A stretch of DNA of 64,000 nt from an uncultured Oscillospiraceae bacterium (GCA_964485605.1 CAZALQ010000001.1:604-64603), one strand, 5' to 3'. Positions 7,205 to 60,285 are shown, numbered from the stretch's first letter. Program-made: numbers and translations. Notes: generated by a model from the letters alone, not told the origin.

Positions 7205-8365
7205 TCACGCTATTTTTTCCGGACTCTCGCCCCAATACAAGGTATCTTTATCAAACATAAGAATTACAGGGTGATTGTACATCATATTGATGTTTTCTAT
7301 TTGTTTTATAAAGACGTTCTCTCCCTGAAACCTTAAAGCCTTGAGATTATCTTCTATCTCTCTTATATATTCTCTGCTAACGCTTTTTAACTTTCGGCTT
7401 CCTTCCTGAATTCCCTGCCCAACTTTTGCAGCCTTTACGCCTTTGATCTTATAAACTGCTTTCCCAACCGCATTCTCTGCATCGGCAAGTCCATTAACGA
7501 CCATTTTGCCTATTGTTTTTGTCGCAAATTCTTCAAGTCTATCACAACACTTTGCGTTCACTTCATTATACTCGCTCTCAAAATTGGAGATTTTATTAAT
7601 TACGGTCTTTAGATATTCCTCAGAATTTGCTTCATGCATCACGATATCTAAAAACTCTGTAAACGAGTATAAATTGACCGCCATCTGATAGTCTTGAAGA
7701 AGCCTTAATATTTCGTCTAACTCCTTCTTTACAGCATTCCCAAAATGAATTCCTTTCTTTGTCACTCTCTGCTCTAAAAGCTGTTTGTACTGACCAATAT
7801 GCCCTAGGGTCTCCTGATTGATTTTTGAAATAGTTTTTCTTCTTGTATCTATAAACTCTTCATTCTCAATATTCATTTTGTATGCTTCAAGTGAGTTCAT
7901 AAGATACTGTACAGATCCTGCCAGCTGTGCCTCATCTTTAATCAGCAAATACTTATAAATACTCTCCTGTCTTTCCTTTATCTGTGATAATTGCATCTGT
8001 ATACTTGCGAGTGCAATTGCAGTACAAATATCTCCTACCTGGAAGGCGGGCGTCAGATCTGCTATCCCCCCGCCAACTCCTCCGTTTGCGGCTTTTATAT
8101 TGCCAATAAACTCTGTTGTTTTGCCTGCTTTTTGAAACAGCTGACCGCCGTGTGCATCAACATAATACAGCCCACTGCCACCTACTCCGTTTACTACTTT
8201 CGTCATGGCGCTGACTAATGACTCAAATCCGGAACCTAAAGATGCAATTACGCCAACTGGTATTGATTTATACGATGCCGGAACTACATGCCGCTCTAAG
8301 AAATTGTTTGCAATGCTTAAATCATCCAATGCACGTATTGCTATTTCATTATGATTATTTTCCAT
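7205..8365 (-). CDS. Hypothetical 386-aa protein: glycine-rich/hydrophobic N-terminal third plus long helical C-terminal region
   Basis: The ATG at 8365 is preceded by GGAGGTG, so the listed TTG at 8380 is less likely. Gly-rich segments include GVGGSGLYY and NGGVGGGIADL. A hydrophobic stretch VGDICTAIALASIQMQL follows, then heptad-like helices. No recognised family. Confidence 0.6.
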   Translation of the reverse strand: MENNHNEIAIRALDDLSIANNFLERHVVPASYKSIPVGVIASLGSGFESLVSAMTKVVNGVGGSGLYYVDAHGGQLFQKAGKTTEFIGNIKAANGGVGGGIADLTPAFQVGDICTAIALASIQMQLSQIKERQESIYKYLLIKDEAQLAGSVQYLMNSLEAYKMNIENEEFIDTRRKTISKINQETLGHIGQYKQLLEQRVTKKGIHFGNAVKKELDEILRLLQDYQMAVNLYSFTEFLDIVMHEANSEEYLKTVINKISNFESEYNEVNAKCCDRLEEFATKTIGKMVVNGLADAENAVGKAVYKIKGVKAAKVGQGIQEGSRKLKSVSREYIREIEDNLKALRFQGENVFIKQIENINMMYNHPVILMFDKDTLYWGESPEKIA

Positions 8366-8397
8366 GAAATTCACCTCCAATAGAAGCCTTGTAATTT

Positions 8398-8613
8398 TTA
8401 CGATGCGCCTTTTTCTACCCTGAAGTCTGTATCAACAAAGGATCCCTTTCCATCCCTTTCTACAAAGTACATTACAACCGCATAAGCAGTGTTATCTATA
8501 TATTCTTTTCTGTAGTCCGGATGAAGGAAACAAAGCCTTCTTACGAGCCTATCAAAAAGCTCCTCTTCTGTTCTTGCTATAGATATGACATTGTCGTAAG
8601 TGATCTTGTACAT
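8398..8613 (-). CDS. Hypothetical 71-aa protein
   Basis: RBS ggagag. Codirectional with and tightly packed against the 386-aa gene. Confidence 0.4.
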   Translation of the reverse strand: MYKITYDNVISIARTEEELFDRLVRRLCFLHPDYRKEYIDNTAYAVVMYFVERDGKGSFVDTDFRVEKGAS

Positions 8614-8715
8614 AGCTTTCTCTCCGAGATTATTTCTGCTCTCAAAAGAAATTATATCACATGATTTCCATATTCATCTATATGGTGTCCCCTGAATAAC
8701 TATATTGATCAGTTC

Positions 8716-10731
8716 TTACCCGGCATTCTCTTCTTCGCTCTCATTTAGTTCACCAAACTTTGGTTCTTCAACCGTATCAAGGAGATAGTTCGCTATTTTC
8801 CTTGCTTTCTCATACATTTCCCTATTCTCCATTATGAGACCTATCATCCTGTTTCCACCAGACTGACGATTTCCGACGATATCCCCTCCGCCTCTTAAAT
8901 CAAGATCTTTTTCAGCGAGGTAGAACCCATCTCCTGACTCGCAAAGAGCCTTGAGTCTTGGGTTTTCCTCTCCGCCTTGGGAAATAAGGACACAGTAGGT
9001 TTGGATATTGCTTCTTCCTACCCTACCCCTTAACTGGTGAAGCTGCGAAAGTCCGAATCTTTCTGCATTTTCTATGACCATCACCGTGGCATTTGGGTTG
9101 TTTATACCGACTTCAACGACAGTGGTGCAAAGTAGCACGTCCACATCTCCATCTTTAAACCTCTGCATCACTGCGTCTATATCTTCCTTTTTATCTCTAC
9201 CTGTAAGAGTCTCGATCTTCACTCCATATGGGTCCAGGAGACCGTGATATACTCCGGAAGCTTCTTCTATAGATAAGACGCCATCCATGCTGTCGTTATC
9301 CTCTATCATCGGGCACACTATATACGCCTGATGCCCGGCTTGTACTTGCTTACAGATAAAACGGGCAGTCCTTTCTCTTGCAGTCATACCTCCTTGAGCT
9401 TTTGCAACTCCAGTCAAGATCGGAAGCCTACCTTTTGGCATCGAGTGTATCTCGTACTGCTGAATGTTTCCATGAAGAACTGCCGTAAGGGTTTTGGGGA
9501 TCGGTGTGGCAGTAAGCATAAGGCTGTGACATCCAGGCTGACCTTTATTTATGAGCTTATCCTTCTGCTCTACGCCGAATCTTTGCTCCTCATCTATAAC
9601 AGCAAGCCTTAGATCCTTATAGATAACATCGTCAGAAATGAGGCTGTGGGTTCCTGTAACGATCCTTGCTGCGCCTGACCTTATTTCTTCAAGTACTTTC
9701 TTTTTCTCTTTTCCTTTTGTATCAGAAGCAAGGAATGCTATATGGATGCCAAGAGGCTCAAACAGTTCTTTAAAATCGCTGAAATGCTGCTTGGCAAGTG
9801 CAGAGGTCGGTGCCATGACCACGGCCTGTCCCCCTCCTCCTATAATGTCGGCTACAACAAGCTGGCAAAGGAAGGTCTTGCCGGCGCCTACATTCGCAAG
9901 CACAATCCCGTTAAGTCTTCTACCACTCTGGATAAGTTCTTCTATTTCCTTTAAGCATTTTGCCTGCCCTTCAGTTGGTTCAAAACCTGACTCCTTAAGG
10001 ACCTTATCCTTTAAGGCCTTTGTCGTGATCTGGAAGGGACTGTACACTGCAGCATTTCTTGAAGATCTTTCGACCTTGTAAGCAAAGTTTATGAACTCGT
10101 AAAGCTGCAGCTGCTCTTTTGCAGCGCTTGCCTCCATGATAGTCTTTGGAAAATGTAAATTTCTGTACATATCCTCTATAGATAAGATCTTGAATCCTTC
10201 TCTCGTCTTAGCTGTAAAAAGTTCCGGAGGAACGCACCTCATTTCCCAAGCCTTTTTGATCTTATCTATAAGATATTCTTCTGACATACCGGGTACTTTA
10301 GGGTAAACAGGTTTCACCGGCGGCATGGATCCGGAAAGACCTATTGCCACCGGGCTCTGACATTCATAGGTCTGAAATGCGAAATTATAGTTAAGATGCC
10401 CTACAAGAATAAAGGTCTTACCTATATATTTTGATAGTTCTGCATGCTTATAGCTCTGGTTAAAGAAAGTAACAGTGATCTTCTCCTCAGTGTCTTTGAT
10501 CACTCCAAAAAACCTCAGCGTTGAGATCCTGCCGTAAGATTCTCTGATATTTTTTCCAATGACTTCTATGCAGCTCAGCTTATCTTCCGGTAGGACTCCT
10601 GTCAGTTTAGAAATATCTAAAAAACTCCGGGGTGTGAGTTTTTTGATTACATCTTCCGGAGTGAATACACCTTTCTTTGCAAACTGCTTTTCTTTTGCCG
10701 GCGTAACACCGATACTTTTCATTTCCATCAT
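8716..10731 (-). CDS. recG: RecG-family DNA helicase, divergent element-borne paralog
   Basis: N-terminal OB wedge region. Helicase motifs NVGAGKTF (I), VIDEEQRFGV (II), TATPIPKTL (III) and QLHQLRGRVGR (VI) occur in RecG order. Confidence 0.75.
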   Translation of the reverse strand: MMEMKSIGVTPAKEKQFAKKGVFTPEDVIKKLTPRSFLDISKLTGVLPEDKLSCIEVIGKNIRESYGRISTLRFFGVIKDTEEKITVTFFNQSYKHAELSKYIGKTFILVGHLNYNFAFQTYECQSPVAIGLSGSMPPVKPVYPKVPGMSEEYLIDKIKKAWEMRCVPPELFTAKTREGFKILSIEDMYRNLHFPKTIMEASAAKEQLQLYEFINFAYKVERSSRNAAVYSPFQITTKALKDKVLKESGFEPTEGQAKCLKEIEELIQSGRRLNGIVLANVGAGKTFLCQLVVADIIGGGGQAVVMAPTSALAKQHFSDFKELFEPLGIHIAFLASDTKGKEKKKVLEEIRSGAARIVTGTHSLISDDVIYKDLRLAVIDEEQRFGVEQKDKLINKGQPGCHSLMLTATPIPKTLTAVLHGNIQQYEIHSMPKGRLPILTGVAKAQGGMTARERTARFICKQVQAGHQAYIVCPMIEDNDSMDGVLSIEEASGVYHGLLDPYGVKIETLTGRDKKEDIDAVMQRFKDGDVDVLLCTTVVEVGINNPNATVMVIENAERFGLSQLHQLRGRVGRSNIQTYCVLISQGGEENPRLKALCESGDGFYLAEKDLDLRGGGDIVGNRQSGGNRMIGLIMENREMYEKARKIANYLLDTVEEPKFGELNESEEENAG

Positions 10732-10989
10732 TTATAGCGATATTTGTGATATCCCGCATATCCCCTTGTTCCCTGGGATCTCAACATCGATTACCTTATA
10801 TATAGCGTCGAGCCTGCTTCCTGCCTTGATCTGCACTGCTTCATTGCAGTCATCTTCTATCGGAAACTTGAAATTCGTCTTAACGCTATATATGTCCGAA
10901 TTAGCCTTTTTAGCAATCGCAAAAGTGATCTTCTTGACCTCATCATCTTTCGTCTTAACTCCAATTTTATAAAGTCTTAATATCTTCAT
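10732..10989 (-). CDS. Hypothetical 85-aa protein, abutting the recG-like start
   Basis: RBS gaaggag. Its stop codon directly abuts the helicase start codon. Confidence 0.45.
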   Translation of the reverse strand: MKILRLYKIGVKTKDDEVKKITFAIAKKANSDIYSVKTNFKFPIEDDCNEAVQIKAGSRLDAIYKVIDVEIPGNKGICGISQISL

Positions 10990-11076
10990 TTCTTCTCCTT
11001 CTCAAAAAATTTTAGTAGTGATAAAATAGTTTTGAGAACGAGCTTTTCATAAAAAGCTTCAACTATATCTCTTATA

Positions 11077-11104
11077 CCCTCGGCCGCCGAGGGCTTTTAA
11101 TTTT
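11077..11104. terminator. GC-rich hairpin (ccctcgg-ccg-ccgaggg) with T-rich flank
   Basis: 7-bp GC stem. The T-tract lies on the + side only, so its function for the minus-strand transcript is uncertain. Confidence 0.35.
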
Positions 11105-11143
11105 CCACATCCCAAATCATCGAAAACAAGTGTTTTCCACAGT

Positions 11144-11317
11144 TTAGGCCTCTCTCACCCTCACATACTGACTCCTATATCCCTTTTTTTCAGCGTGATA
11201 TATTGCTGAATGGATACTGTCTTCTGTTGTATGACACTTCTCAGCGAGCTCCTTCGCCGTATCTGCTATACATATTGGAAGCTCAAACCTATCTTTTGTA
11301 ACCTGCATCCATATCAT
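11144..11317 (-). CDS. Hypothetical 57-aa protein (below ORF-track cutoff), HTH-like
   Basis: Hand translation gives MIWMQVTKDRFELPICIADTAKELAEKCHTTEDSIHSAIYHAEKKGYRSQYVRVREA. Strong RBS ggaggga. Confidence 0.45.
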   Translation of the reverse strand: MIWMQVTKDRFELPICIADTAKELAEKCHTTEDSIHSAIYHAEKKGYRSQYVRVREA

Positions 11318-11320
11318 TTT

Positions 11321-11467
11321 TTACTCCCTCCCAAGAAGCTTTAGTCTGCTCGATGCAACCTTGCTATTGCATTCATCGCAGCATCTACCATCATTTTTTA
11401 GAGGCCATGGGTCGTTTCCATAGCCTTCATACTCTTTCCCGCAAATGCAGCATGCCCCTCTTTTCAT
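11321..11467 (-). CDS. Hypothetical 48-aa zinc-ribbon protein (below ORF-track cutoff)
   Basis: Hand translation gives MKRGACCICGKEYEGYGNDPWPLKNDGRCCDECNSKVASSRLKLLGRE, with CxxC...CxxC motifs. Its ATG overlaps the stop of the upstream gene (ATGA). Confidence 0.45.
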   Translation of the reverse strand: MKRGACCICGKEYEGYGNDPWPLKNDGRCCDECNSKVASSRLKLLGRE

Positions 11468-12513
11468 CTCTCTTTTCCCGCATCGATATCCGTTACCCAA
11501 GATTTCGGATCTTCAAGACTTGCATCCTCTCTTTTTTCTTTTCGTCTTTCTTTCCTTTTCTCCTCGTAATATTCTTCTGGCATTCCTTTTACAAAAGCAT
11601 TGACCCATATCACACGGCCTTTAGCTTCCTTATAAAACGGACTGTCTAATCTCCTAAGATGCCCGCGTACACTGTATACGCCCTTTTCGTTTGCCCCTTC
11701 TGACTCCGGAAGTTCTACCGCGTATATCTCTCCCGGATCTTCGCTTCTTTCTTTAAGAAGCCTAAATGCAATTACCTTATTACCTTCTTCATCTCTTAAA
11801 GACGATGCTTTAATGAACCTATCGCCTTTTGGATCCTTGTTGGCCATATAAAGGAAGTCATTCGCGTTTCTAAACACGGTCCTGATCTTTTCTGCCTGCA
11901 TAAGGAAGACCTCTTTCATGCTCATGTTTTGATTCTCAAGACTTTCTTCGTATGTCTCTTCTTGTATCAGATCGCCAAAGACCCTTTTTCTTGCTGCACA
12001 TTGCAATTTCCAGTTGAGCTTCGGGGAAAACCCGTACCACTCTTCCAATGTCGGAAGATCAGCTATTTTGATCTTTCCATCCTTTTCTTTGAAAGAAAAA
12101 GCAACTGTTGTTCTGGTCTTAAACTCCGGTCTTGATCTCATGAGATCAAGCTGTTCTTTAAGGAACCTATCAGTTATCGTGTCAGCCATAATAGGTGTGT
12201 TATATGCCTTTGCAAATGAGTGCTCATCCATTTCGCGCTTTGTGTCCTCATAAAAAGAGAGCTGCTGCGACTTATCTATCCTGTAAAAGACAATGTCGTT
12301 TTTCTGCTTGGTCACCTTAACGCTTATCGGAAGAGGATCCGGAGCAAGGTTTAGTTGCACCTTGCTGTAAAAGAGCGGAAGTTTTCCCTTGATATTCTTT
12401 ATACACCACTCATTTAATCGTTTTGCTGTTTCGATATCTATATCATATATAACCACTGCTTTATTACCTTTCAAAACCAAGGGACAGATACTGAAGACAT
12501 CTCTTTTGTTCAA
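11464..12513 (-). CDS. Hypothetical 349-aa protein with Lys/Glu-rich C-terminus
   Basis: Long ORF codirectional with its neighbours. The only available start is TTG with a poor RBS, so the start is uncertain. Confidence 0.55.
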   Translation of the reverse strand: MNKRDVFSICPLVLKGNKAVVIYDIDIETAKRLNEWCIKNIKGKLPLFYSKVQLNLAPDPLPISVKVTKQKNDIVFYRIDKSQQLSFYEDTKREMDEHSFAKAYNTPIMADTITDRFLKEQLDLMRSRPEFKTRTTVAFSFKEKDGKIKIADLPTLEEWYGFSPKLNWKLQCAARKRVFGDLIQEETYEESLENQNMSMKEVFLMQAEKIRTVFRNANDFLYMANKDPKGDRFIKASSLRDEEGNKVIAFRLLKERSEDPGEIYAVELPESEGANEKGVYSVRGHLRRLDSPFYKEAKGRVIWVNAFVKGMPEEYYEEKRKERRKEKREDASLEDPKSWVTDIDAGKER

Positions 12514-12585
12514 GATTGGGGGGCTTGATATAGAGATGTGTGATTATTACAGAAAAGAAATGTCCATCCCTTTGATCTTAAGGAT

Positions 12586-12628
12586 ATTATACTATATATT
12601 CTTATTTATGTAAATAATATATTTAGAT
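12586..12628 (-). promoter_or_regulatory. Minus-strand promoter (TTTACA-17-TATAAT) overlapped by 21-bp inverted-repeat operator
   Basis: -10 at 12586-12591 and -35 at 12609-12614 (reverse complement). The operator atgTAAATAataTATTTAGAT at 12608-12628 differs by 1 nt from the copy at 52092-52112. Confidence 0.5.
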
Positions 12629-12707
12629 TAAATATATTTAGCCTATTCTTCGCCTTCCAAGGCAAACAAAAAATCGCCTATCTCAAGGCGATTGCTGTGA
12701 TGTAAAG

Positions 12708-13217
12708 TTACTTCTCCATGTTAATGCTTTTGATCAGCCCTCTTATGATATATCTCACGATCTGCTTTGCTATAAGCCACAAGACCAGAAAGCAAAGTCC
12801 CGCGATCAGAAGCCGAATCTCAGAAATAGGACCTCTGTATGTGAGAAGCAGCTCCATAGCAAGTGTAAAAGTGGCCATAAAGAAAACCTGCCTTCTTGCT
12901 GTTGCTGACTCAATACTTATTGTCATCTTTCTTGGTGGCTCCCCTTCTTCAAAAGGTGTTCCGTCTGTTCTTGCTCGTTCCCGTATTCTCCTATATTTTA
13001 ACGAGACATATCCTGCAACTATGCCGATATACGATGGCCCTAACAGATGAAGGCAATATCCGCCTATCCTCAGCTGAAGAAATGACAGTATTCCTTGCTC
13101 TAGCCAGATTACGACCATGAGCCCTGCCAGATATATAAGCACCGCTGTGGATGTTGCAGCCAACACTAGTATTGTTCCTTTTAGCTTAGGTCTTTTATTC
13201 AACTTTTGCTCCTGCAT
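12708..13217 (-). CDS. Hypothetical integral membrane protein (about 4 TM)
   Basis: 169 aa and hydrophobic. Overlaps the end of the upstream MBL gene by 23 nt. Confidence 0.5.
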   Translation of the reverse strand: MQEQKLNKRPKLKGTILVLAATSTAVLIYLAGLMVVIWLEQGILSFLQLRIGGYCLHLLGPSYIGIVAGYVSLKYRRIRERARTDGTPFEEGEPPRKMTISIESATARRQVFFMATFTLAMELLLTYRGPISEIRLLIAGLCFLVLWLIAKQIVRYIIRGLIKSINMEK

Positions 13218-14163
13218 CCTTCTCTGTTAGTTTCTGGTCTTTTAAGGCATTCGTTGTCACTGAATTTCCGTCCGTTGTAAATACTATGTCTCCTGACTTC
13301 CACGTGCCGTATACATTTCTATTCTTTGTGTACTTTATAGCATCTGCAAGCACTGTTGGGTGAGGATGATAATGATCATTGTTTGCGGCTGCCGATATGA
13401 CAAAGTACTCCATATGCTTAAATTCCTTAAGCAGCGAATTTGAAGTGTTGGATCCGTGATGTGCTGCTACTACAACTGTTGGATCAATATCATAGGCTGT
13501 AAGCTTTTGCTCCATATCGCTCTCCAAATCTCCGGTACAAAGGAAACTTACGTCCTTATATTTAAGGTACGTTACAACTGAATTGTTGTTTGGATTTTCG
13601 TTGTTATCCTCTATGTCGTAGATATTCAGAGCCGCTCCGTTAGACAGGTTTATGGTCATATCTCGGTCTTCCTCAACAGTTCCTCCGTCATTTATGGCTG
13701 CGTTCATGAAGTAATAAAAATACCCCTCATCGGACAAATCTCCGTAGATCGTATGTTTAACAGAGAAGTTTTCATATATCCTCTGAAGACCGCCTACATG
13801 ATCTTCATGACAATGAGTAGCAATGACATATTCGACTACTCCATCTGCTGCATATGGTCTGATTTTATCAGGAAGCACATCGGACCCTTCAAACGGGCCT
13901 CCATCTATAATGATCTGAGTGTCGCCCATAGATATAAGAACACAAAGACCCTGGCCTTGGTCTAGGATTGCATAAGTAAGTTCCCTTTCAACTGGACTGG
14001 AACCGGGATTATCTATATTATTGAATCCGCCCTGATCTATTTCTTCCTGCTGATTTTTGCTTTTGATCACAAGCACTGCGATTCCTGCAATTATAGATAA
14101 GATGAGAACGATTCCTATTATCTTAACTACAGGCCTTAACTTTCTTCTTTTCTTTCTTGCCAT
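13195..14163 (-). CDS. Membrane-anchored MBL-fold metallo-hydrolase (ComEC C-terminal-domain type)
   Basis: N-terminal KR-rich segment plus a single TM (IIGIVLILSIIAGIAVLVI). HxHxDH motif ATHCHEDHVGGL, plus a later AAHHGS. Confidence 0.7.
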   Translation of the reverse strand: MARKKRRKLRPVVKIIGIVLILSIIAGIAVLVIKSKNQQEEIDQGGFNNIDNPGSSPVERELTYAILDQGQGLCVLISMGDTQIIIDGGPFEGSDVLPDKIRPYAADGVVEYVIATHCHEDHVGGLQRIYENFSVKHTIYGDLSDEGYFYYFMNAAINDGGTVEEDRDMTINLSNGAALNIYDIEDNNENPNNNSVVTYLKYKDVSFLCTGDLESDMEQKLTAYDIDPTVVVAAHHGSNTSNSLLKEFKHMEYFVISAAANNDHYHPHPTVLADAIKYTKNRNVYGTWKSGDIVFTTDGNSVTTNALKDQKLTEKDAGAKVE

Positions 14164-14530
14164 ATCTTCTTATCTCTTTTTTAAAGTAGTCGATCTCTTT
14201 TCTTTTCAGCCCTGCGAGACAATACCCGTCCTCGTCCTTTGAAAGTTTCAGAAAGATCGCACTCCCAAAACAAAGCCCCGCGTCAAGAGGAAGGAATTCG
14301 GACACCCCTTTGTTATATTCCCCGCAACCATTATTCTTTGAGTAGTATACCACAAAGAACTCCAATGGCATTGCATCCGTATCATATATATAAGGAAAAG
14401 TTTCTATATCGTGTGAAAGTATCTGCCTTCCAAGATCTGAAAACTCTCCCCTGTATAGACCGTTGACCTGGATTTCATCGAGATTTTCTTCGGCAAACTC
14501 TCCGTTGGCTCTTGCGAGCAATATCTTCAT
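14123..14530 (-). CDS. Hypothetical 135-aa protein, DUF3846-like pattern
   Basis: Strong RBS aggagg. Length and pattern (MKILLAR...GSAIFLKLSKDEDGYCLAGLKRKEIDYF) recall DUF3846 proteins of mobile elements. Assignment is tentative. Confidence 0.4.
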   Translation of the reverse strand: MKILLARANGEFAEENLDEIQVNGLYRGEFSDLGRQILSHDIETFPYIYDTDAMPLEFFVVYYSKNNGCGEYNKGVSEFLPLDAGLCFGSAIFLKLSKDEDGYCLAGLKRKEIDYFKKEIRRYGKKEKKKVKACS

Positions 14531-14694
14531 GTGTATCTCCTCCTGTTATCTGTATTTTCTATGATAAATTATATGGATAAGATCAGAAAAATCTCCCGAA
14601 GTTCAGAGAATTTCTTCAAAAAATATAAAAAATCTAAATATTTCATTTATAATGTGAAATATAGGTAAGATCCGAAGTATACGGAGGCAATACA

Positions 14695-15303
14695 TTGATA
14701 CAGAAACTTCATTTCAGAAAAGAAATTTTAGCAGACGTCGATACCAGCGTCCTAATAAAAGAAAACCTTTCATATCAGATCATCTCAAAAGCAAGATCCG
14801 GCATGTCTCTCGCACTAGATGATTTACTTAAGTTTGCAGAACATTTTAAAACAAACATCAGTTATCTGTTTTGTCTTACCGAAGACAGTTCTCCTTTGGA
14901 CTATTATACGCTCGACGAGAGAAGATTCAGATTCAACTCGATAAAAGAGGAACAAAAAGAAAGGTCCCGTGTCGTATCGATCATTGAGGCCACTGGGATC
15001 AGCTCTGCAACTCTTACTAAGATCACAAAAGGTGATTTGCCAAAGAAACTTGCACCTTTATTTAGCTATGCAGAATATTTCGGAGTCTCCCTTGATTACC
15101 TCTACGGTCTTACATACAAAAGGCAATGGGGAGAGCCTTATACTCCCCCTCCTTTAGGCTCTGTTATCTCGTTTGTACAAAATGGGACTCCCTGCTTTGC
15201 TGTAGTCACTCTCAATGGCAGGATCAAAACGACACTTGGAAACGAATTTTCCATGATCGATTTTTGCGAAAAACGAATAAATTATGTGGAGGTGGTAAGG
15301 TGA
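14695..15303 (+). CDS. Putative DNA-binding protein with two XRE-like HTH repeats
   Basis: TTG start with RBS ggagg. Two similar segments end in ...FAEHFKTNISYLFCLTED and ...YAEYFGVSLDYLYGLT, typical of XRE HTH C-terminal ends. Confidence 0.55.
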   Translation: MIQKLHFRKEILADVDTSVLIKENLSYQIISKARSGMSLALDDLLKFAEHFKTNISYLFCLTEDSSPLDYYTLDERRFRFNSIKEEQKERSRVVSIIEATGISSATLTKITKGDLPKKLAPLFSYAEYFGVSLDYLYGLTYKRQWGEPYTPPPLGSVISFVQNGTPCFAVVTLNGRIKTTLGNEFSMIDFCEKRINYVEVVR

Positions 15304-16520
15304 AACGCAAAGCTCTTGCCGTGCTTTTATCTTTATCTCTTCTTCTTTCCTTTTCGGCATGCGGAGCCCCTAAGAAAGAGGAGCCTGCCATAGAACAAGG
15401 TGGATTCAACCCAGTCACTGTTTCAGAAAAGACAGAAAAAGACTACAGTGAAAAGAACACCTTCACACAGCTTGATGAGCCCTTTGGTTTTGAATATAAA
15501 GAAATATGCCTCCCCCGATCCCATCAAAGATTCATGGTTCCCAATATAATGTCTGTATCAGTAATCACTGCAAGGCACCTTAAAATGACTATGACTGGTG
15601 GAGATGCTTTTGGATCTAAAGATATAGACTTTCATCTTCATCTTAAGACGCCTGTACAAGATCAGGGGGTGTTCACCGGCTATACGCCGCCATCTACAAT
15701 ATCTTCTTCTCTTAAAACGTTTAATAACGAGCTTATCTATACTTCCTTTGCTATAGGAAATGATAATTACCGGTTTGACACTGTTCCGGATATTTCTGCT
15801 CGGATGCTACCTTCGATATCAAATGGAGACAACGCCTGCTATTTTGAATTTGAGGATCCTTCCCTTCTTGGTGATAAGAACTCCTCCACTCTTGCCGGCT
15901 ATAGTGCCCTAGTTTTTGCATACACGTTTGATGGTGTTGATGCAATATGGTATAGCGTTTTTCCAAAGGAATCTCTTGAAAATGTGAAAAAGCTTCTTAC
16001 CTATATCGTATCAACCGTCAAATATGAGATGTTCGAAGACAGGCCTTTTTCTTCCGTTTCTCTAAACAACTTTGACTTCTGCGTACCACCAGATGCAGTC
16101 CTTAAGACATACGGGACATCATCCTTCTATCAGGTCCCATATTTAAAAAGTCTAAGTTCCTATGCTGGTTTCGGGGTCGGAGTATTCGATTATTCTGCCT
16201 GCGAAAAGGCAAGGTTCAATAACATCTACTTAATGTTTACAGGTGTAGATAGTGACGAAGGATCAAGTGTATATCGCTATGGACACGAAGACAACGTAGA
16301 CCTCAACGGCAACATGGCAGAGTTTTGTGACACTTATTACGCCAACGTTAGAAATCCCAATGGAGATTCCTTCTTCCTTCAGGGTTCTCAGGTGATATTC
16401 AAAGTATATAAGTTCGGTAGCCAAGCTTTTATTGTCTTTGATAAAGACGATATGTTCACATATCACTTTGATGAGTTTAAGGCAAAATGTTTAAACTCAA
16501 ATTTTAAACATTCAAATTAA
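15300..16520 (+). CDS. Lipoprotein of unknown function
   Basis: The GTG at 15300 overlaps the upstream stop. The signal peptide VKRKALAVLLSLSLLLSFSAC carries a lipobox. The listed start at 15126 is rejected. Confidence 0.6.
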   Translation: MKRKALAVLLSLSLLLSFSACGAPKKEEPAIEQGGFNPVTVSEKTEKDYSEKNTFTQLDEPFGFEYKEICLPRSHQRFMVPNIMSVSVITARHLKMTMTGGDAFGSKDIDFHLHLKTPVQDQGVFTGYTPPSTISSSLKTFNNELIYTSFAIGNDNYRFDTVPDISARMLPSISNGDNACYFEFEDPSLLGDKNSSTLAGYSALVFAYTFDGVDAIWYSVFPKESLENVKKLLTYIVSTVKYEMFEDRPFSSVSLNNFDFCVPPDAVLKTYGTSSFYQVPYLKSLSSYAGFGVGVFDYSACEKARFNNIYLMFTGVDSDEGSSVYRYGHEDNVDLNGNMAEFCDTYYANVRNPNGDSFFLQGSQVIFKVYKFGSQAFIVFDKDDMFTYHFDEFKAKCLNSNFKHSN

Positions 16521-16527
16521 ATACATA

Positions 16528-16579
16528 ATCTAAATATCTTATTTAGATTATTGACATTGTTTCTCCTTTGAGGTATAAT
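16528..16579 (+). promoter_or_regulatory. Operator inverted repeat + consensus sigma-A promoter
   Basis: ATCTAAATAtctTATTTAGAT (16528-16548) is followed by ta and then TTGACA (16551-16556), a 17-nt spacer and TATAAT (16574-16579). Confidence 0.65.
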
Positions 16580-16630
16580 TTATATGCTTAAAACACAGCA
16601 ATTTCAAGGCTTTAAAGGAGATAATCAATA

Positions 16631-17242
16631 ATGTTAAAAGAGAATTCACAAATCATCAAAATAGATGCCAAAAACGTTTTTCTTGACGTAAGAGAGGCAT
16701 TCGTAATAGATAGGGTCGTGCTTCAGTTTAGAAGATATGACCAATCTCTTTCAAAGGGGAACAAAATCACTCAGTCTATAGATTATTATCTTTCCCTTGA
16801 AGATTTCGCATATCTTTGCTATGTTTTTTATAGTGGAGGGATAAATAAGATCCTGCAAAAGCAAAGTTATGTAAACTACAGTGGTTCCGTAAAAAACGGA
16901 AAGGTCATTTCAAGAATACTTAAGATCGAAGGTGGACAGGACGACAAATTTTTTGTAAAGGCCCAGTCGGGACCGGGAAAAAAGACCGCAACCGGTGCAA
17001 TTTCCCCAGTATTCGGTGACAAACCCGATACAGAAATAGTAATAAAACTGTCCTCAGAACAAATAAAGAAGTTTGGTCTTGCTGGCGAGCGAGCCTTAAG
17101 GATCCGGGACATGTGGGTCGCAATGGGAGTTCTTGACGAAAAATGTGAAGCTCTCCGGTTCAAAAAGATAGAATTCGAAGAGCCCATAAGAAAAATCCCG
17201 GCTCCGGTATATGAAGGCTCTGCAGCTCTTGACCTGTTTTAG
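16631..17242 (+). CDS. Hypothetical 203-aa protein
   Basis: RBS aaggag. First gene of the operator-controlled operon. Confidence 0.6.
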   Translation: MLKENSQIIKIDAKNVFLDVREAFVIDRVVLQFRRYDQSLSKGNKITQSIDYYLSLEDFAYLCYVFYSGGINKILQKQSYVNYSGSVKNGKVISRILKIEGGQDDKFFVKAQSGPGKKTATGAISPVFGDKPDTEIVIKLSSEQIKKFGLAGERALRIRDMWVAMGVLDEKCEALRFKKIEFEEPIRKIPAPVYEGSAALDLF

Positions 17243-17257
17243 GAAGCAGAGGAAAAA

Positions 17258-17443
17258 ATGCCTAATTTAAAATCAAGAAGACTCAAAAAAACACAGTATG
17301 CTTACAATAAAGTACCCCTTGAAGATGCTGTGTTTTTTGATGCGGAAAACGGAGAAGAAAACTACTGGACGTCATTGACTGACGAGGAAAAAGACAGCTT
17401 GATATACAGCGGTGAAGAATTTACATATGAAGAACAGCCATAA
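17258..17443 (+). CDS. Hypothetical acidic 61-aa protein
   Basis: Short ORF with a modest RBS, codirectional with its neighbours. Confidence 0.4.
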   Translation: MPNLKSRRLKKTQYAYNKVPLEDAVFFDAENGEENYWTSLTDEEKDSLIYSGEEFTYEEQP

Positions 17444-17479
17444 AGAGAAGAGGTACCTCTCTCTGAAAAAGATTCTTTT

Positions 17480-17875
17480 ATGACAAACGAAGAGGAAGAA
17501 TTGGGTGAGGATCTAGGAGATTATGATCCAAAACAGCAAAAAAAGCTCAAAAAAAAGCAGAAGGCTGTCGAGAAACTTCGCAGACAGACAGACAAGAAAA
17601 TGCGAAAGCTCTCAAAAAAAGACTTTGAAAAAACAAAAAAAGGGTCCTTTTCCTTATTTGAAGAATCTCAGGAAACTGAGGAAGAAGTACGGCGAAGAAA
17701 ACTGTACGAAAGGATCAATGCAGACGGCTACTACAATGTGATCCATCCAATCGACTATGAAGAAAAACTAGAAAAAAGCAGACTTGGAATGTCAAAAACA
17801 AAGCTATTTGTTGCTTTGGCTCTTCTTGGTTCTGTTGCTCTTATAGTATTTGGTTTACTTTATATACTTAATTAA
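17480..17875 (+). CDS. Hypothetical Lys/Glu-rich protein with C-terminal TM anchor
   Basis: 131 aa with C-terminus LFVALALLGSVALIVFGLLYIL. Weak RBS. Confidence 0.4.
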   Translation: MTNEEEELGEDLGDYDPKQQKKLKKKQKAVEKLRRQTDKKMRKLSKKDFEKTKKGSFSLFEESQETEEEVRRRKLYERINADGYYNVIHPIDYEEKLEKSRLGMSKTKLFVALALLGSVALIVFGLLYILN

Positions 17876-17877
17876 TT

Positions 17878-20094
17878 ATGACCGTAGTATTCAGCAGAAA
17901 ATTTGAAGATATCGCAAGGATCACAGCGGGCCTTTGTGGTCTTCCTCTTGATGGCCGAAAATTGACTCTTTCGACAGTTGATAAAAAAATAGGTAAAGCC
18001 TTAAGTTACTATAAGGATTTCGGATACATCAGCCTATTTTCGGCAGTTATAAACCAAAAAATTGAAACTATATTTACCTGGGGAGACGATCTGTTTGAGA
18101 CCCACACCCTTTTTGATGAGAACAGAATTCCATTTCTTAAAAAGGTCTTGAAGGAATCGGAGCAGGCAGAGAATCTAAAAGGTATCTTTACCGGAAAGAT
18201 CGATGACCTGATTTTTGCTGGCAAATCCGAAGACAACGCATACTTTAAAGATGTGCTTACTCTTTACAATATTGAAAGACCCCTGATCCGTCTTTGCAAG
18301 ATAACGGAGTTTAGTGAAGAAGCTCTTAAGACCGCTTTTTCCTCCGGTCTTACAAGCGTAACATCATCTGAAATCGCTCTGGACAAAGCCGGGTGCTACA
18401 GAAGCGCTATAGATAAGATCGACATACGATTAAAAGGAACTGTTTCATCCGTCCTTCCGACGGCGGAGTATCCAGGAATAGAAACTCTATCCGCACTATC
18501 CTATATATATCAGCAAAATAAAAAAACCATAAGTAAGGCCTCTAATGACAGTACTTACAAAATTGCAGTTACCGGTAACTTTGCCGGAAGAAACTTCGTT
18601 CTTTCTTCCAAGCTTTCCTTTTCAAGTAAGGATTTAGCCGAAAGAGCCCTCAAAGACCTTCCTGCTGCTGCGGAAGTCATTAGTAAGGGCGGAAATACGA
18701 TTGAGAAAGAATTCCCAAAAGGGGCATTCACGAATTCCAGACTCCTTGTTGCAGCAAAAAAGGGACTTGGTTTTTCATCCGAGCAGACACTTGCAGCCCT
18801 ATCTTATCTATATAGCGGCGGATTTATAACCGACCCGCAGACAGAGTCCTCATTACTTCCAAAAAACAGTCGAAATGTACTCTTTGACAGACTTTCAGCT
18901 TTCAAAGAATCCTCCGTAGGTGATCTCCTTGCAGCTATGAAACTTCCTAACGCAAGAGATGAATACTTTTCGGAAAACGATACACATGGCATCATTATCA
19001 CAGAAAAAAAGCCTGTTATAAAAAACAAAGACGCAAAATCTATTTATAGACTTATTGTGACGGAACTTATAAAGGTCTATTATCCTCCAAGAGAAGAAAA
19101 AACATTTAAGATCACAGCAAAAGGAGGTGGCTATACCTTCTCAGGACGTGGAAAAAAACTAGTCCGTGCCGGTTTTTCTGAACTCGAAAACAGAAAACCT
19201 ATCAATGAAAATGTTCCTTTTGAAATAGAAAAAGGTAGTATGATCGCTCTAAGTTACCGTATTTCGGCTCCTGGGACCTCATCAACTCTTCCCGGTTTAT
19301 CAACAATGTCAAAATACGATTTTGGTCCCCTTCCCCTTTCCGAGCAAATAAGGATACTGTCCTCCTTAGGGCTTATCACAGTCACAAACGATAAGTACAG
19401 TATTGAAAAAAAGGCATACCCTATCCTCCGTATATTAAGACCGTGCAGCGGTCTTCTTGATGGCAAATTCATTCGTATACTCTGCTCAAACCTTGAAACG
19501 ATTTCAAACGACGATAAACAACGAAGAAAAGAAGCCGAAGATATAGTACTGTCTGATCTTGATGCCCTTATAGATTACTGGCAGAAGTCCATCCTTGAAG
19601 GACGGGCCGTAGAAGTCCCGGTACACTGCCCTGTTTGCTTATCTACGCTCAAAGAGTCCTCTGGAAGACTTCTATGTGATGATTGCGGTTTTGAAACTGA
19701 CCTGATTATCTCAGGTAGAACTATGAATATGCAAGAAATGGAGCATCTGTTCCAGGAGGGATCCACTCCCCTTATTGACGGATTCAACGGTGATTACCTT
19801 GCAAGACTTTATCTCTCGTCTGCAAAAGAGGTCTTTATTACAAGGGACTCCCAGTATTCATGCCCTGTATGCGGAGAAAAGATGCGGGTAAGAAAAAGTG
19901 ATCGTGCCTATGTTTGCAGCTGCGGATACGAATTAAGAAGGATCTATAAAGGCCATGAATTTACAAAAAAGGAACTTAGCACCCTTTTTACCACTCTTCA
20001 GCTGCCAAAAGTAAAGATAAATGAAGGAGGGGCAGCAAGAACAGTTACACTCATACTCGATAAAGGAAAGCAAGGAAGGATAACTGAGCTTTAG
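17878..20094 (+). CDS. Topoisomerase-IA (Topo III-like) homolog lacking catalytic residues; two C-terminal zinc ribbons
   Basis: GFITDPQTES occupies the place of the xITYPRTDS active-site motif (D319, codon 18832-18834). AGKSEDNA stands in place of the Toprim DxDxEG motif, and there is no N-terminal EKP motif. CPVCLS...CDDCGFE and CPVCGEK...CSCGYE form zinc ribbons. Confidence 0.7.
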   Translation: MTVVFSRKFEDIARITAGLCGLPLDGRKLTLSTVDKKIGKALSYYKDFGYISLFSAVINQKIETIFTWGDDLFETHTLFDENRIPFLKKVLKESEQAENLKGIFTGKIDDLIFAGKSEDNAYFKDVLTLYNIERPLIRLCKITEFSEEALKTAFSSGLTSVTSSEIALDKAGCYRSAIDKIDIRLKGTVSSVLPTAEYPGIETLSALSYIYQQNKKTISKASNDSTYKIAVTGNFAGRNFVLSSKLSFSSKDLAERALKDLPAAAEVISKGGNTIEKEFPKGAFTNSRLLVAAKKGLGFSSEQTLAALSYLYSGGFITDPQTESSLLPKNSRNVLFDRLSAFKESSVGDLLAAMKLPNARDEYFSENDTHGIIITEKKPVIKNKDAKSIYRLIVTELIKVYYPPREEKTFKITAKGGGYTFSGRGKKLVRAGFSELENRKPINENVPFEIEKGSMIALSYRISAPGTSSTLPGLSTMSKYDFGPLPLSEQIRILSSLGLITVTNDKYSIEKKAYPILRILRPCSGLLDGKFIRILCSNLETISNDDKQRRKEAEDIVLSDLDALIDYWQKSILEGRAVEVPVHCPVCLSTLKESSGRLLCDDCGFETDLIISGRTMNMQEMEHLFQEGSTPLIDGFNGDYLARLYLSSAKEVFITRDSQYSCPVCGEKMRVRKSDRAYVCSCGYELRRIYKGHEFTKKELSTLFTTLQLPKVKINEGGAARTVTLILDKGKQGRITEL

Positions 20095-20097
20095 TGT

Positions 20098-20251
20098 TTG
20101 ACTTAAAGTTAAATTCAGTGTAATATACCTATAGTTTATATTTTACTATTCTGGCGGCTTTAGCAAGCCGGATATCATCTGTTAAAAACAACTGTTAATC
20201 GTAGCACACCTTAAGGAAGGTATTTATACCTTTCTTGCGGTGTGTTTTTTT
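20098..20251 (+). promoter_or_regulatory. Module A: promoter TTGACT-17-TAATAT, conserved structured leader, intrinsic terminator
   Basis: -35 at 20098-20103 and -10 at 20121-20126. P1 hairpin CGGCTT/AAGCCG at 20155-20170. Conserved block GGATATCATCTGTTAAAAACAACTGTTAATCGTA at 20170-20203. Terminator at 20205-20251. Confidence 0.6.
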
Positions 20252-20282
20252 ATTTTGCTAATCGAGAATAGGAGGAAATGTA

Positions 20283-25410: not shown

Positions 25411-25419
25411 GCGCTTTTA

Positions 25420-25576
25420 TTGACATCTTTCCATAGATAAGATAATATATCTGTAGTTTATTTTTTTACATTCCATCAGCACACTATGTGCAAGGTGGAT
25501 ATTAGTCGTTAAAAAACATGTTAATCGTAATGCACAGTAAACAGGGCCTTTGGGTCCTGTTTCTGTGTATTTTTTT
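25420..25576 (+). promoter_or_regulatory. Module B: promoter TTGACA-17-TAATAT, conserved structured leader, intrinsic terminator
   Basis: -35 at 25420-25425 and -10 at 25443-25448. P1 is CCATC..GCACA-cta-TGTGC..GGTGG at 25473-25498. The block GGATATTAGTCGTTAAAAAACATGTTAATCGTA follows. Terminator at 25532-25576. Confidence 0.6.
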
Positions 25577-32279: not shown

Positions 32280-32852
32280 ATGAGTCAAAATATCTTAAAA
32301 AGAAGCATAGAAAGGATGCAATCAACCGTCACAGACGGGGAAAAACAAAAGGAACTTGATACATTCCAAGAAGTATTATCTGATGCTATGAGGAAAAAGT
32401 CAATTAAAACCGCAAGAGAGTTTGAAAGATACCTTTTTAAAGCCGGAATAGACTATATCAAGTTTAGAAGAATTGCGGAATATAAACAGGGAGTTGTTGT
32501 CCCTCCTTTTGAAAAAGCAAAAGTGATGCTGGATTCACTTGAGTACGATATTACAGAAGATAAGCTTATAAGAATACTGAGTAATAGTAAAAAGAGTTTA
32601 AGCAGCACAAAGGAGGAGATGGCCGGAGGACAGAGCTTTAGAAAAACTAAAAGCGTTACTCTGAATTATAAGATCATCGACAAAACAAAAGACGCAGATG
32701 CAGTTAATACGATCATTGAGGAAAGAATAGAGGAACTCTTTGGAAATAAGAGTAGTTTTTCAGCCTATATAAACCTACTGATCAAGAAGGATTATAACGA
32801 ATATATACTTAATAGAGAAAAAGTTGAGGAGGAATTAAAGTATGACGACTAA
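32280..32852 (+). CDS. Partition-operon leader protein, C-terminal RHH-like segment
   Basis: 190 aa. The C-terminus KSVTLNYKIID...SSFSAYINLLIKKDYNEY resembles CopG/ParG-type RHH. RBS aaggag. Confidence 0.45.
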   Translation: MSQNILKRSIERMQSTVTDGEKQKELDTFQEVLSDAMRKKSIKTAREFERYLFKAGIDYIKFRRIAEYKQGVVVPPFEKAKVMLDSLEYDITEDKLIRILSNSKKSLSSTKEEMAGGQSFRKTKSVTLNYKIIDKTKDADAVNTIIEERIEELFGNKSSFSAYINLLIKKDYNEYILNREKVEEELKYDD

Positions 32853-35596: not shown

Positions 35597-35747
35597 TTGA
35601 CATACATTCATTTCGTGATATACTCAAGATACAGTTAATTGTTTTACATTCCGTTTGCATGTGCAGGACGGATATCATCTGTTAAAAATTTTGTTAATCG
35701 TAACACACTAAAGAAAGGTGCGAGCCTTTCTTCCAGTGTGTTTTTTT
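35597..35747 (+). promoter_or_regulatory. Module C: promoter TTGACA-16-TATACT (TG-extended), conserved structured leader, intrinsic terminator
   Basis: -35 at 35597-35602 and -10 at 35619-35624. P1 is CCGT..GCA-tg-TGC..ACGG at 35651-35671. The block GGATATCATCTGTTAAAAATTTTGTTAATCGTA lies at 35670-35703. The terminator at 35703-35747 has perfect stems. Confidence 0.65.
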
Positions 35748-35780
35748 ATTGTCTATTCGAAAACAGGAGGATTAATCGTT

Positions 35781-43311: not shown

Positions 43312-43352
43312 TTGACCTTTTTTTGAAATGTAAATATAATGTTTATTTAGAT
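43312..43352 (+). promoter_or_regulatory. Promoter TTGACC-17-TATAAT with TATTTAGAT half-operator just downstream
   Basis: Hexamers at 43312-43317 and 43335-43340. Half-site at 43344-43352. Confidence 0.5.
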
Positions 43353-52091: not shown

Positions 52092-52143
52092 ATCTAAATA
52101 ATATATTTAGATTATTGACATTTCTTTTATTAAGTGTTATAGA
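52092..52143 (+). promoter_or_regulatory. Operator inverted repeat + promoter of the sigma-factor gene
   Basis: ATCTAAATAataTATTTAGAT (52092-52112) is followed by ta, TTGACA (52115-52120), a 17-nt spacer and TATAGA (52138-52143) with TG extension. The geometry is identical to 16528-16579. Confidence 0.65.
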
Positions 52144-52192
52144 TAAAACAGAGAAAGGTTTTATCTATGATAAACCCTTAAGGGAGATGCCA

Positions 52193-52738
52193 ATGAAAAC
52201 TATAGATAAGGAAAAACTTATAGAAGAAAACCTCGGGCTTGTAGGATACACGCTTTCGCTCCTCAACGTAAGAGAACTCTTAAGAAAAAATGATAGGCTT
52301 ACCTATGAGGATTTATTCCAGGAAGGTTGCCTTGCTCTTTGCAACGCAGCTATGGCATATGACAGCAAAAAAGGAGCCTTCTCTACACTTGCAGTCATAA
52401 GTATAAAGAGGCATATTATTGGACTTGTTAGGAAGGAATCCGGGAGCAAAAGATATGCACATAGCAGCGCTATATCAATCGAGACAGAAGAAGGGATTTC
52501 TCTTCTTGACAAGCTTCCCGGGAAGACAGTATCTGACATGCTCTCATATACAGCTCTAAAAGAGGAGGTTTTAAAAAAGGCAGAAGAACTAGGTGTCTGC
52601 TCAGAAGCCAGAGCAATGATCTATTCTCAGGAGGAAAAGATCACCCTTGCAAAGGCATGCAGGGAACTTGGTCTTATCTATAAAACGACACAAAAAAGAA
52701 TACAGAGACTAAAAAAAGTTTTGACAAGTGAGGCGTAG
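52193..52738 (+). CDS. Sigma-70-family RNA polymerase sigma factor (small, regions 2 and 4)
   Basis: Region 2 is DLFQEGCLALCNAAMAYDSKKGAFSTLAVISIKRHI. The region-4 HTH is ITLAKACRELGLIYKTTQKRIQRLKK. The ATG at 52193 lies 7 nt after gggag. Confidence 0.75.
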   Translation: MKTIDKEKLIEENLGLVGYTLSLLNVRELLRKNDRLTYEDLFQEGCLALCNAAMAYDSKKGAFSTLAVISIKRHIIGLVRKESGSKRYAHSSAISIETEEGISLLDKLPGKTVSDMLSYTALKEEVLKKAEELGVCSEARAMIYSQEEKITLAKACRELGLIYKTTQKRIQRLKKVLTSEA

Positions 52739-60054: not shown

Positions 60055-60285
60055 CAACAATTATCTGATATTAAAAATTTTACAGATTTAGGGATACATT
60101 TATTAAATATATGCATATAAAACATAATGGGAATAAGATGTTAAATATAACATCATTTTAGGCGATATAGATAACATTCGAGTATATAAATATCATATTT
60201 GGAGATGACTATAAAAACCAAACCGGGGTATTGCTAAATTAGAAAATAACTATTCATTTGTGACAGACAAGGGGAAGTGAGATAC

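Follow-up and report, generated by a model that had tools for sequence, protein, structure and literature searches.

The element and its conserved module

The window, that is, the whole stretch of 64,000 nucleotides analyzed here, comes from an uncultured Oscillospiraceae bacterium and, judged by its gene content, is a conjugative plasmid of the Gram-positive type. It encodes Rep (HTH_36), ParA, a ParB-like protein, and a DUF3854 primase, as well as the transfer-type proteins VirB4 (43376–45892), a coupling protein, and an M23 peptidase. The promoter P203 drives the gene of a 203-aa protein (16631–17242) and a long operon reaching ~30.5 kb. This operon, which stands behind an inverted repeat (dyad) at 16528, encodes, besides the 203-aa protein, a topoisomerase-like protein, an AAA_5 ATPase, VWA and YqaJ-like proteins, and a RecD2-type helicase. 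Another promoter, Psigma, drives a sigma-70-family gene (52193–52738).

Part of the window is a module conserved in five otherwise diverged elements (7205–14530 and 14695–20094 of the window; L014, L015, L016, and L018). One strand of the module carries genes for a RecG-like helicase, for an MBL-fold protein, and for a product of ~130 aa. The divergent strand carries tandem-HTH, lipoprotein-like (~405 aa), 203-like, and topoisomerase-like genes, one of each. Because the module recurs in five elements, the RecG-like region of the window is probably plasmid rather than host DNA.

The nearest PLSDB plasmids by VirB4 are Clostridia megaplasmids (Subdoligranulum, Vescimonas, and Butyrivibrio) with 26–29% identity, and the sigma homolog of Subdoligranulum sits within an operon, without a promoter dyad. 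A PLSDB megablast with the 12–20 kb part of the window gave no match. A T4CP alignment used to scan GTDB genomes hit nothing but Streptococcus loci, which are unrelated (24% identity), and scans of JGI metagenomes and IMG/VR with an alignment of the 203-aa protein gave no match, so that the family seems to be missing there. Among 5.8 billion proteins, five relatives of the 203-aa protein and three of the sigma factor were found, all of them metagenomic. By these searches, the element is rare, and the sample names of its relatives suggest a ruminant gut survey. More distant relatives of the 203-aa protein, with 28–35% identity over ~70% of the length, are found on very large Firmicutes plasmids, in hosts including Clostridioides difficile BI1, Paenibacillus polymyxa, Brevibacillus, and Clostridium perfringens; every one is annotated as hypothetical. 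A PDB sequence search with the 203-aa protein gave no significant match.

The Rfam search of the whole window found no family. A sequence of ~150 nt is present in three copies (20097–20270, 25418–25560, and 35597–35760), each with a strong promoter, TTGAC[T/A]-17-TAATAT or TATACT. Its conserved leader blocks read ATAGTTTATwTTTTAC..ATTCC and GGATATCATCTGTTAAAAA-N5-TGTTAATCGTARCACAC, and two of the three copies have a terminator-like hairpin (CACACC..GGTGTG followed by T7). It looks like a repeated small RNA or attenuator leader without an Rfam match. Two called ORFs, at 25518 and 35718, may not be genuine or may have a later start. A miniature CRISPR-like array was seen in L018 (1290–1490), in which a 35-nt repeat (ATCTACTTATAGTAGAAATTACAGGRCTCCAAACC) occurs twice in full and once in degenerate form. 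Adjoining the array (1490–2497) is the gene of a small Cas12-like nuclease, a protein of 335 aa with the domains RuvC_1 and NUC.

A dyad at several promoters of the window

The dyad ATCTAAATA-N3-TATTTAGAT is perfect at 16528 and 52092 and has one mismatch at 12608. The first-pass annotation had listed these three copies, and both the coordinates and the strings that it gave are exact. With up to two mismatches allowed, the window contains 3 sites, compared with 0.01 expected from local-composition shuffles. With up to three mismatches, 5 sites are found, compared with 0.14 expected from the same shuffles (0.21 in a first count over the window). The three strong sites and the two to three weaker ones are all located in promoter regions, and the intergenic share of the window is only ~7%. 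The copy at 52092–52112 is unchanged in three further samples of the same element. The status of the 60184–60204 match as an operator is uncertain.

Half-sites had also been claimed at 14632 and 43344. Both are present, but a single 9-mer half-site by itself occurs at chance level. The motif ATSTAAATA is found 9 times in the window, compared with 2.63 expected, and all nine copies fall within five promoter regions. From the placement of its sites, the dyad regulon would comprise at least four, and probably five, promoters (Table 1).

Table 1. Positions of the candidate regulator gene, the promoters, and the putative operators in the window
Feature	Position	Strand	Description
Candidate regulator, 202 aa	14695–15303	+	Two Xre-type five-helix HTH domains (9–58, 80–136), C-terminal beta domain (157–201)
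P203	16551–16579	+	TTGACA-17-TATAAT, 12/12 consensus (promoter scan)
Psigma	52115–52143	+	TTGACA-17-TATAGA, preceding TGt = extended −10; read by eye
P349	12614–12586	minus	TTTACA-17-TATAAT, 11/12; drives 349-aa/zinc-ribbon/57-aa operon
−10 of tandem-HTH gene promoter	14648–14653		TATAAT, fused to right arm of 14632 dyad
virB4 promoter	43312–43340		TTGACC-17-TATAAT; −10 and start overlapped by arm pair
Putative operator at P203, core	16528–16548	.	ATCTAAATAtctTATTTAGAT; perfect, spacer tct
Putative operator at P203, full extent	16525–16551	.	Perfect 12-3-12 palindrome ATAATCTAAATA-tct-TATTTAGATTAT
Putative operator at promoter of sigma-factor gene	52092–52112	.	ATCTAAATAataTATTTAGAT; perfect 9-3-9 palindrome, P203-like geometry
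Putative operator at promoter of 349-aa operon	12608–12628	.	ATGTAAATAataTATTTAGAT; one mismatch; covers −35
Putative degenerate operator at tandem-HTH gene promoter	14632–14652	.	ATCTAAATAtttCATTTATAA; 3 mismatches; left arm perfect
Possible operator at virB4 promoter	43328–43352	.	Arms ATGTAAATA and TATTTAGAT, gap 7 nt instead of 3
Weak match upstream of 677-aa gene	60184–60204	.	ATATAAATAtcaTATTTGGAG; 3 mismatches

The two perfect copies are followed directly, on the 3′ side, by the identical string TATTGACATT, as had been noted before; it starts with TA and continues with TTGACA. The dyad centre lies 13 nt before the −35 hexamer at both P203 and Psigma. With the transcription start placed 7 nt past the −10 (the starts being predicted), the centres fall at about −48 for P203, −48 for Psigma, −39 for P349, and −18 for the 14632 site, so that the earlier figure of about 48 nt for the first two holds under this assumption. 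All three strong dyad copies adjoin or overlap promoters that are close to the sigma-A-type consensus. The promoter scores were 12/12, 11/12, and 11/12, with P203 at 12/12 and P349 at 11/12. The scanner leaves out Psigma because the final A of its −10 breaks the scanner's rule, and the TGtTATAGA of this promoter is kept in a related element, B (see below). The overlap of the 12608 dyad with a minus-strand −35, also claimed in the first-pass annotation, was borne out by the promoter scan; the dyad overlies TTTACA at 12614–12609, and a terminator (12672–12693) stands upstream of P349. Two dyad copies are located 8–10 nt past a stop codon.

Several additional repeats were observed around these promoters. 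The string TATTGACAT (16549–16557 and 52113–52121), which includes the −35, matches the right arm TATTTAGAT at all but two positions. On account of this near match, the −35 region reads as a third, directly repeated arm with a spacer of 12; the string is without conservation in element B. A perfect palindrome, AATATATTTA-gat-TAAATATATT (12616–12638), overlaps the right arm of the 12608 dyad, and the two together form four alternating TAAATA/TATTTA elements upstream of the promoter of the 349-aa operon. The final codons of the lipoprotein-like gene contain a perfect 10-7-10 palindrome, AATGTTTAAA-N7-TTTAAACATT (16486–16512), 13 nt before the 16525–16551 palindrome and 16 nt before the 16528 core. 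A perfect 11-8-11 palindrome, ATAGATAAAAC-N8-GTTTTATCTAT (52139–52168), extends from inside the −10 of Psigma to ~+19. It is kept in element B (L003 3581–3609), where 9/10 positions are paired, with a compensatory change from A-T to G-C. Its role may be that of a second operator or, should transcription begin further upstream, of a leader hairpin. The 5′ leaders of the 203-aa orthologs also have a palindromic core, CAATTTCAAGG in the window (16603–16616); the same core reads TTGAAATTTCAA in element B (L001 ~1143–1156) and in element C (L009 ~52–68).

Putative operators at the same promoters of related elements

The window is referred to as element A in the comparisons that follow. Element B consists of three short contigs (L001, L003, and L013) of sample ERZ28654662, and we infer from the shared sample and the shared dyad that they form one replicon. 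L001 carries a 203-aa ortholog (76% identity), L003 a coupling protein, an S1-domain protein, and a sigma ortholog (64% identity), and L013 an ortholog of the 202-aa HTH protein (48–49% identity). A perfect palindrome of a different sequence, TTAAGAAATA-N3-TATTTCTTAA, is located directly upstream of the −35 at the 203-aa and the sigma orthologs of B. Element E (L010), which belongs to sample ERZ28654133 and is known from a single promoter, has a 203-aa ortholog with 53% identity, and the palindrome TATCCTAAATTA-ata-TAATTTAGGATA lies directly before the TTGACT of its 203-aa promoter. The distance from the dyad to the −35 is 14 nt at both B promoters and in E. No dyads of the B or E type were found on searching the window, and the similarity between copies is limited to the dyad and, in A, the −35. 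In B, both arms have changed together at more than one promoter, and B and E alike keep the symmetry, the 3-nt gap, and the register with the −35, which points to an operator that co-evolves with an element-encoded binding protein. This concerted change at the same promoters also upholds the earlier proposal of a real, promoter-linked operator common to unrelated operons.

The promoter of the tandem-HTH gene has a related arrangement. In B it contains TTAAGAAATAtttTATTTATAAT (L013 443–465), the counterpart by position of ATCTAAATAtttCATTTATAAT in the window. A and B agree in that the left arm has the sequence type of the element that carries it and the right arm runs into the −10; the first base of the −10 stands 6 nt past the dyad centre. 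A recurrent perfect palindrome was not found in L002 (element D), L015, L016, or L018. The −35 hexamers of relatives without the dyad are ATAGAC, TTGCAC, or TTGCTA; those of the dyad-bearing promoters are TTGACA or TTGACT. L009 (element C) ends 8 nt before the −35 and is uninformative for the dyad. L011 was rejected as a comparison locus, its sigma context being unrelated.

Element F (L014), a genome-assembly contig of 84.6 kb with the accession JAZUKP010000033.1, is a distant syntenic relative. Its gene order is RecG-like helicase, MBL-fold protein, and a small gene, followed on the other strand by tandem-HTH, lipoprotein-like, 203-like, and topoisomerase-like genes. No N3 palindrome was found in F. 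An unrelated, asymmetric 13-mer, GGyAAwTCrTGTw, is present in 5 copies, compared with 0.73 expected. One copy lies in the promoter of the HTH gene, and two inverted copies flank the core of the 203-like promoter, one overlapping the −35 and the other at ~+1. The 349-aa ortholog of F (37% identity, E 4e-49) is encoded in an operon whose promoter has the remaining two copies, one within the spacer of TTGACA-17-TATAAT and the other ~20 nt upstream. The 13-mer thus occurs singly, inverted at 30 nt, and in direct orientation at ~28 nt. Since the same three promoters are marked in A and F, the regulon appears to be conserved and the operator sequence to be element-specific. Going by these positions, the F sites are placed where only a repressor makes sense.

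The putative regulator and its proposed mode of action

The 202-aa protein of the conserved module matches Pfam HTH_3 (24.4 bits against a cut-off of 23, E 3.1e-5), which places it in the XRE/HTH_3 family, and PHROG 8, "transcriptional regulator" (E 8e-13, residues 26–138). Its AlphaFold2 model (pLDDT 87.8) consists of two five-helix HTH domains and a small C-terminal beta domain. A Foldseek search with this model returned single-domain Xre-type matches only (9iaq, 6jq1, 3qq6, 8qao, and 3jxb, repressors of phages and other mobile elements among them), with a probability of 0.9–1.0 and E 0.017 or worse. None of the solved structures matched over the whole 202-aa chain, and none reached E ≤0.001; PDB sequence searches gave no significant match. 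The folds of P22 c2, TP901-1 CI, SinR, DdrO, and SaPI Stl appear to match each HTH domain of the model.

The tandem-HTH gene is the only clear transcription factor gene of the conserved module and is syntenic in five elements, and its own promoter bears the element-specific site in A, B, and F. Of the proteins compared between A and B, its product has diverged furthest (48–49% identity versus 64–76% for the others). In the second recognition helix, residue 103 is A in A and K in B, and residue 107 is K in A and S in B; by hand alignment, we take these residues to be the equivalents of the base-contacting residues 29 and 33 of the phage 434 repressor. The recognition helix is no more diverged than the whole protein, with 6/11 residues identical, and polar residues are scarce in the first HTH of the B ortholog. 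Perfect palindromes suit a homodimer with identical reading heads better than two unlike HTHs in one chain, which counts against a single-chain binder. We propose, with a probability of roughly 0.6, that the dyad is the element-specific operator of an autoregulated, plasmid-encoded XRE-type repressor, likeliest the 202-aa protein.

The first-pass annotation had named three candidate regulators. The dual-HTH protein is favored by the site in its own promoter in A and B, its central position in the regulon, and its divergence. The 190-aa protein (32280–32852) was rejected as the regulator; it is an unlikely candidate because its own promoter, TTGAAC-17-TATAAT, has no dyad. It is encoded upstream of parA and, by eye, has an Xre-like HTH followed by a ribbon–helix–helix-like C-terminus. 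No family match was obtained for it, the PDB sequence search gave no significant match, and it may be the regulator of the par operon. The third candidate, a 57-aa protein, is considered below with the other explanations.

That the operator belongs to a different protein altogether, whether the 57-aa HTH-like protein (11144–11317), another small plasmid protein, or a host factor, seems doubtful, and the 57-aa protein is the main alternative to the 202-aa regulator. It has a weak sigma-region-4/HTH_36-like motif, its gene belongs to the operon whose −35 is covered by a dyad, as autoregulation predicts, and a small homodimer would suit a perfect palindrome. However, no significant family, PDB, or PHROG match was obtained for this protein, and no ortholog was retrieved for covariation. 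A host factor is unlikely, as the operator differs between close elements from similar samples and the tandem-HTH promoter carries the site specific to each of A, B, and F. The palindromes are very unlikely to act as nucleic-acid hairpins, that is, as a cruciform or as a signal by which the transcript of the upstream gene is weakly terminated or processed. A compensatory change in two arms would preserve a hairpin as well, the perfect copies fold as RNA at −5 to −11 kcal/mol (z-scores down to −5.4), and two copies closely follow a stop codon. Nevertheless, the stems are nearly all A-T and no T run comes after them, in contrast to the G+C-rich stem and T run of an intrinsic terminator, and the terminator scan makes no call. 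Moreover, the fold energy of the 12608 copy is only −1.4 kcal/mol, this copy comes after a proper terminator, the HTH promoter in A and B keeps one arm only, each copy is in fixed register with a −35 or −10 hexamer, and the 13-mer found at the same promoters of F is not palindromic. The statistics, together with the existence of three different palindromes, make chance or simple duplication extremely unlikely. The remains of a promoter cassette that was duplicated, or AT-rich DNA that resembles an UP element and has no specific binder, could account for TATTGACATT being common to two copies and for AT-rich sequence at −38 to −58, the location of an UP element. Yet the similarity ends at the dyad and −35 edges, only 0.01 sites are expected, palindromic symmetry is kept across three sequences in three elements, and some sites cover the −35, the −10, or the start, positions at which UP elements would not be.

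The remaining question is the sign of regulation. A dimer with a dual function, activating the 203-aa and sigma promoters from about −48 and repressing at the 349-aa operon, its own gene, and virB4, is possible but not favored. A site centred at −48 overlaps neither the −35 nor the −10, and activators can sit just upstream of the −35. The fixed distance from dyad to −35 (13 nt in the window, 14 nt in B and E) is typical of contact-dependent activation, the −10 of Psigma, TATAGA, is noncanonical and might need help, and Rco of pLS20 both activates and represses its own promoter (PMC4207663). The activation at −48 suggested in the first-pass annotation does not fit the other evidence, however. 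With 12/12 matches and a 17-nt spacer, P203 should need no activator; the −35 hexamers of relatives lacking the dyad are weaker, not stronger; and the orthologous promoter of F is flanked by sites at the −35 and ~+1. A centre at −48/−49 also differs from the classical activator positions, −41.5 and −61.5. A class II (CRP/FNR-like) activator site would be centred near −41.5 and overlap a weak −35; the centres here fall ~48–49 nt before the predicted start, clear of a −35 that is consensus. We favor repression everywhere, since the promoters with −48 sites already have consensus elements, the relatives without the dyad have a poorer −35, and the other sites of A and F overlap core elements; for P203 and Psigma, we infer that the −48 sites would likewise serve repression.

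In the repressor mechanism that we propose, the binding unit would be the arm wwATSTAAATA, and two arms placed head to head with a 3-nt gap would make a strong site. The distribution of the arms, the spacings in F, the lone arm at the HTH promoter, and the N7 pair at virB4 suggest that a single arm is the unit and that N3 palindromes are the strongest sites, probably through cooperative binding. If single arms are the binding unit, it is plausible that the virB4 promoter belongs to the regulon. The link to virB4 made in the first-pass annotation stands in part: the ATSTAAATA copies are all promoter-located and the 43344 half-site is the right arm of a pair, but the pair is spaced by N7, not N3. 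The repressor would cover the −35 at P349, the spacer and the −10 at its own promoter (the proposed site of autoregulation), and probably the −10 and the start at the virB4 promoter. At P203 and Psigma it would occupy about −58 to −38, flush against the −35 hexamer. RNA polymerase docks there with its alpha C-terminal domains and with sigma region 4, and the repressor could compete with the former and crowd the latter. After establishment in a host, the strong promoters would be kept low by the repressor. Upon transfer into a repressor-free cell, the promoters would be expected to fire until the repressor builds up. The specificity of operator and regulator would be private to each related plasmid, as in heteroimmune phages.

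The operator sites of KorA are located over the −10, whereas the strongest sites of the window lie upstream of the −35. In other respects, the KorA/OA system of the IncP-1 plasmids RK2/RP4, which acts with KorB and TrbA, resembles the window in placing one symmetric operator at the promoters of unrelated operons. In RP4, a single plasmid HTH repressor, KorA, uses the symmetric OA operator at seven promoters (PMC2665229). Perfect high-affinity sites and degenerate lower-affinity sites occur together (PMC2665229), as they appear to do in the window, and the regulator gene is under its own control (PMC2665229), as we propose here. The two proteins differ in that KorA has 101 aa and a 12-bp operator, whereas the candidate of the window is a tandem Xre-type protein of 202 aa with sites of 21–27 bp and a 3-nt gap, and they have no sequence relationship. 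None of the scanned window proteins matched the KorA-type family, and the 202-aa candidate matches only HTH_3 and PHROG 8. The window also differs in its Clostridia-type Gram-positive host and in having a plasmid sigma factor among the targets.

In R388 (IncW), strong promoters are under tight negative feedback by plasmid repressors (PMC3937220), and the same is predicted for the window. The burst upon entry of R388 includes establishment genes such as ssb and ardC (PMC3937220). The long DNA-handling operon behind a 12/12 promoter in the window would fit the overshooting logic of R388. The dynamics given here for the window are a prediction; R388 has six repressors, and the window has one documented operator type, with hints of others.

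ImmR of ICEBs1, an XRE-type immunity repressor, is a comparable system, and element-specific pairs of operator and repressor have a parallel in phage heteroimmunity. Like the candidate of the window, pLS20 Rco is encoded by an Xre-type HTH gene beside and divergent from the genes that it controls. Rco is autoregulated at a promoter with an overlapping divergent partner (PMC4207663). In contrast to Rco and the phage repressors, the candidate has two HTHs in one chain and a small beta domain, and its targets would be spread over ~40 kb rather than gathered in a single switch region. Neither an anti-repressor nor a protease or peptide signal was identified in the window.

A tentative further reading is that single-chain tandem-HTH proteins of ~200–300 aa with a C-terminal beta domain are an undescribed plasmid "immunity" determinant in gut Clostridia, with an operator of its own in each lineage, one arm bound per molecule, and a position at the top of a sigma/transfer cascade. 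If so, the family would be conserved beside the RecG-like/metallo-beta-lactamase-fold/topoisomerase-like module, and its lineage operators would be the palindromes in A, B, and E and the asymmetric 13-mer in F. Binding of one arm per molecule would leave the arm spacing free to vary (N3, N7, and 30 nt). The regulator would gate the plasmid sigma factor and, through sigma, the transfer genes, and it would decide cross-repression between related plasmids on entry.

Taken as a whole, the feature appears to be a sound, fairly ordinary case of plasmid "global" regulation, which would act like KorA/OA, the R388 repressors, Rco, and the phage immunity repressors. Plasmid repressors with operators at many promoters are a well-known principle, so that what is added is one more example and a new regulator family rather than a new concept. 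The operator would tie the regulator's own gene to an establishment-type operon, to a plasmid sigma factor, and probably to the type IV secretion genes, giving a testable wiring diagram for a conjugative plasmid of an uncultured gut or rumen Clostridia lineage. In addition, the natural operator variants of A, B, E, and F would provide a specificity-swap series for an uncharacterized family of tandem-HTH regulators.
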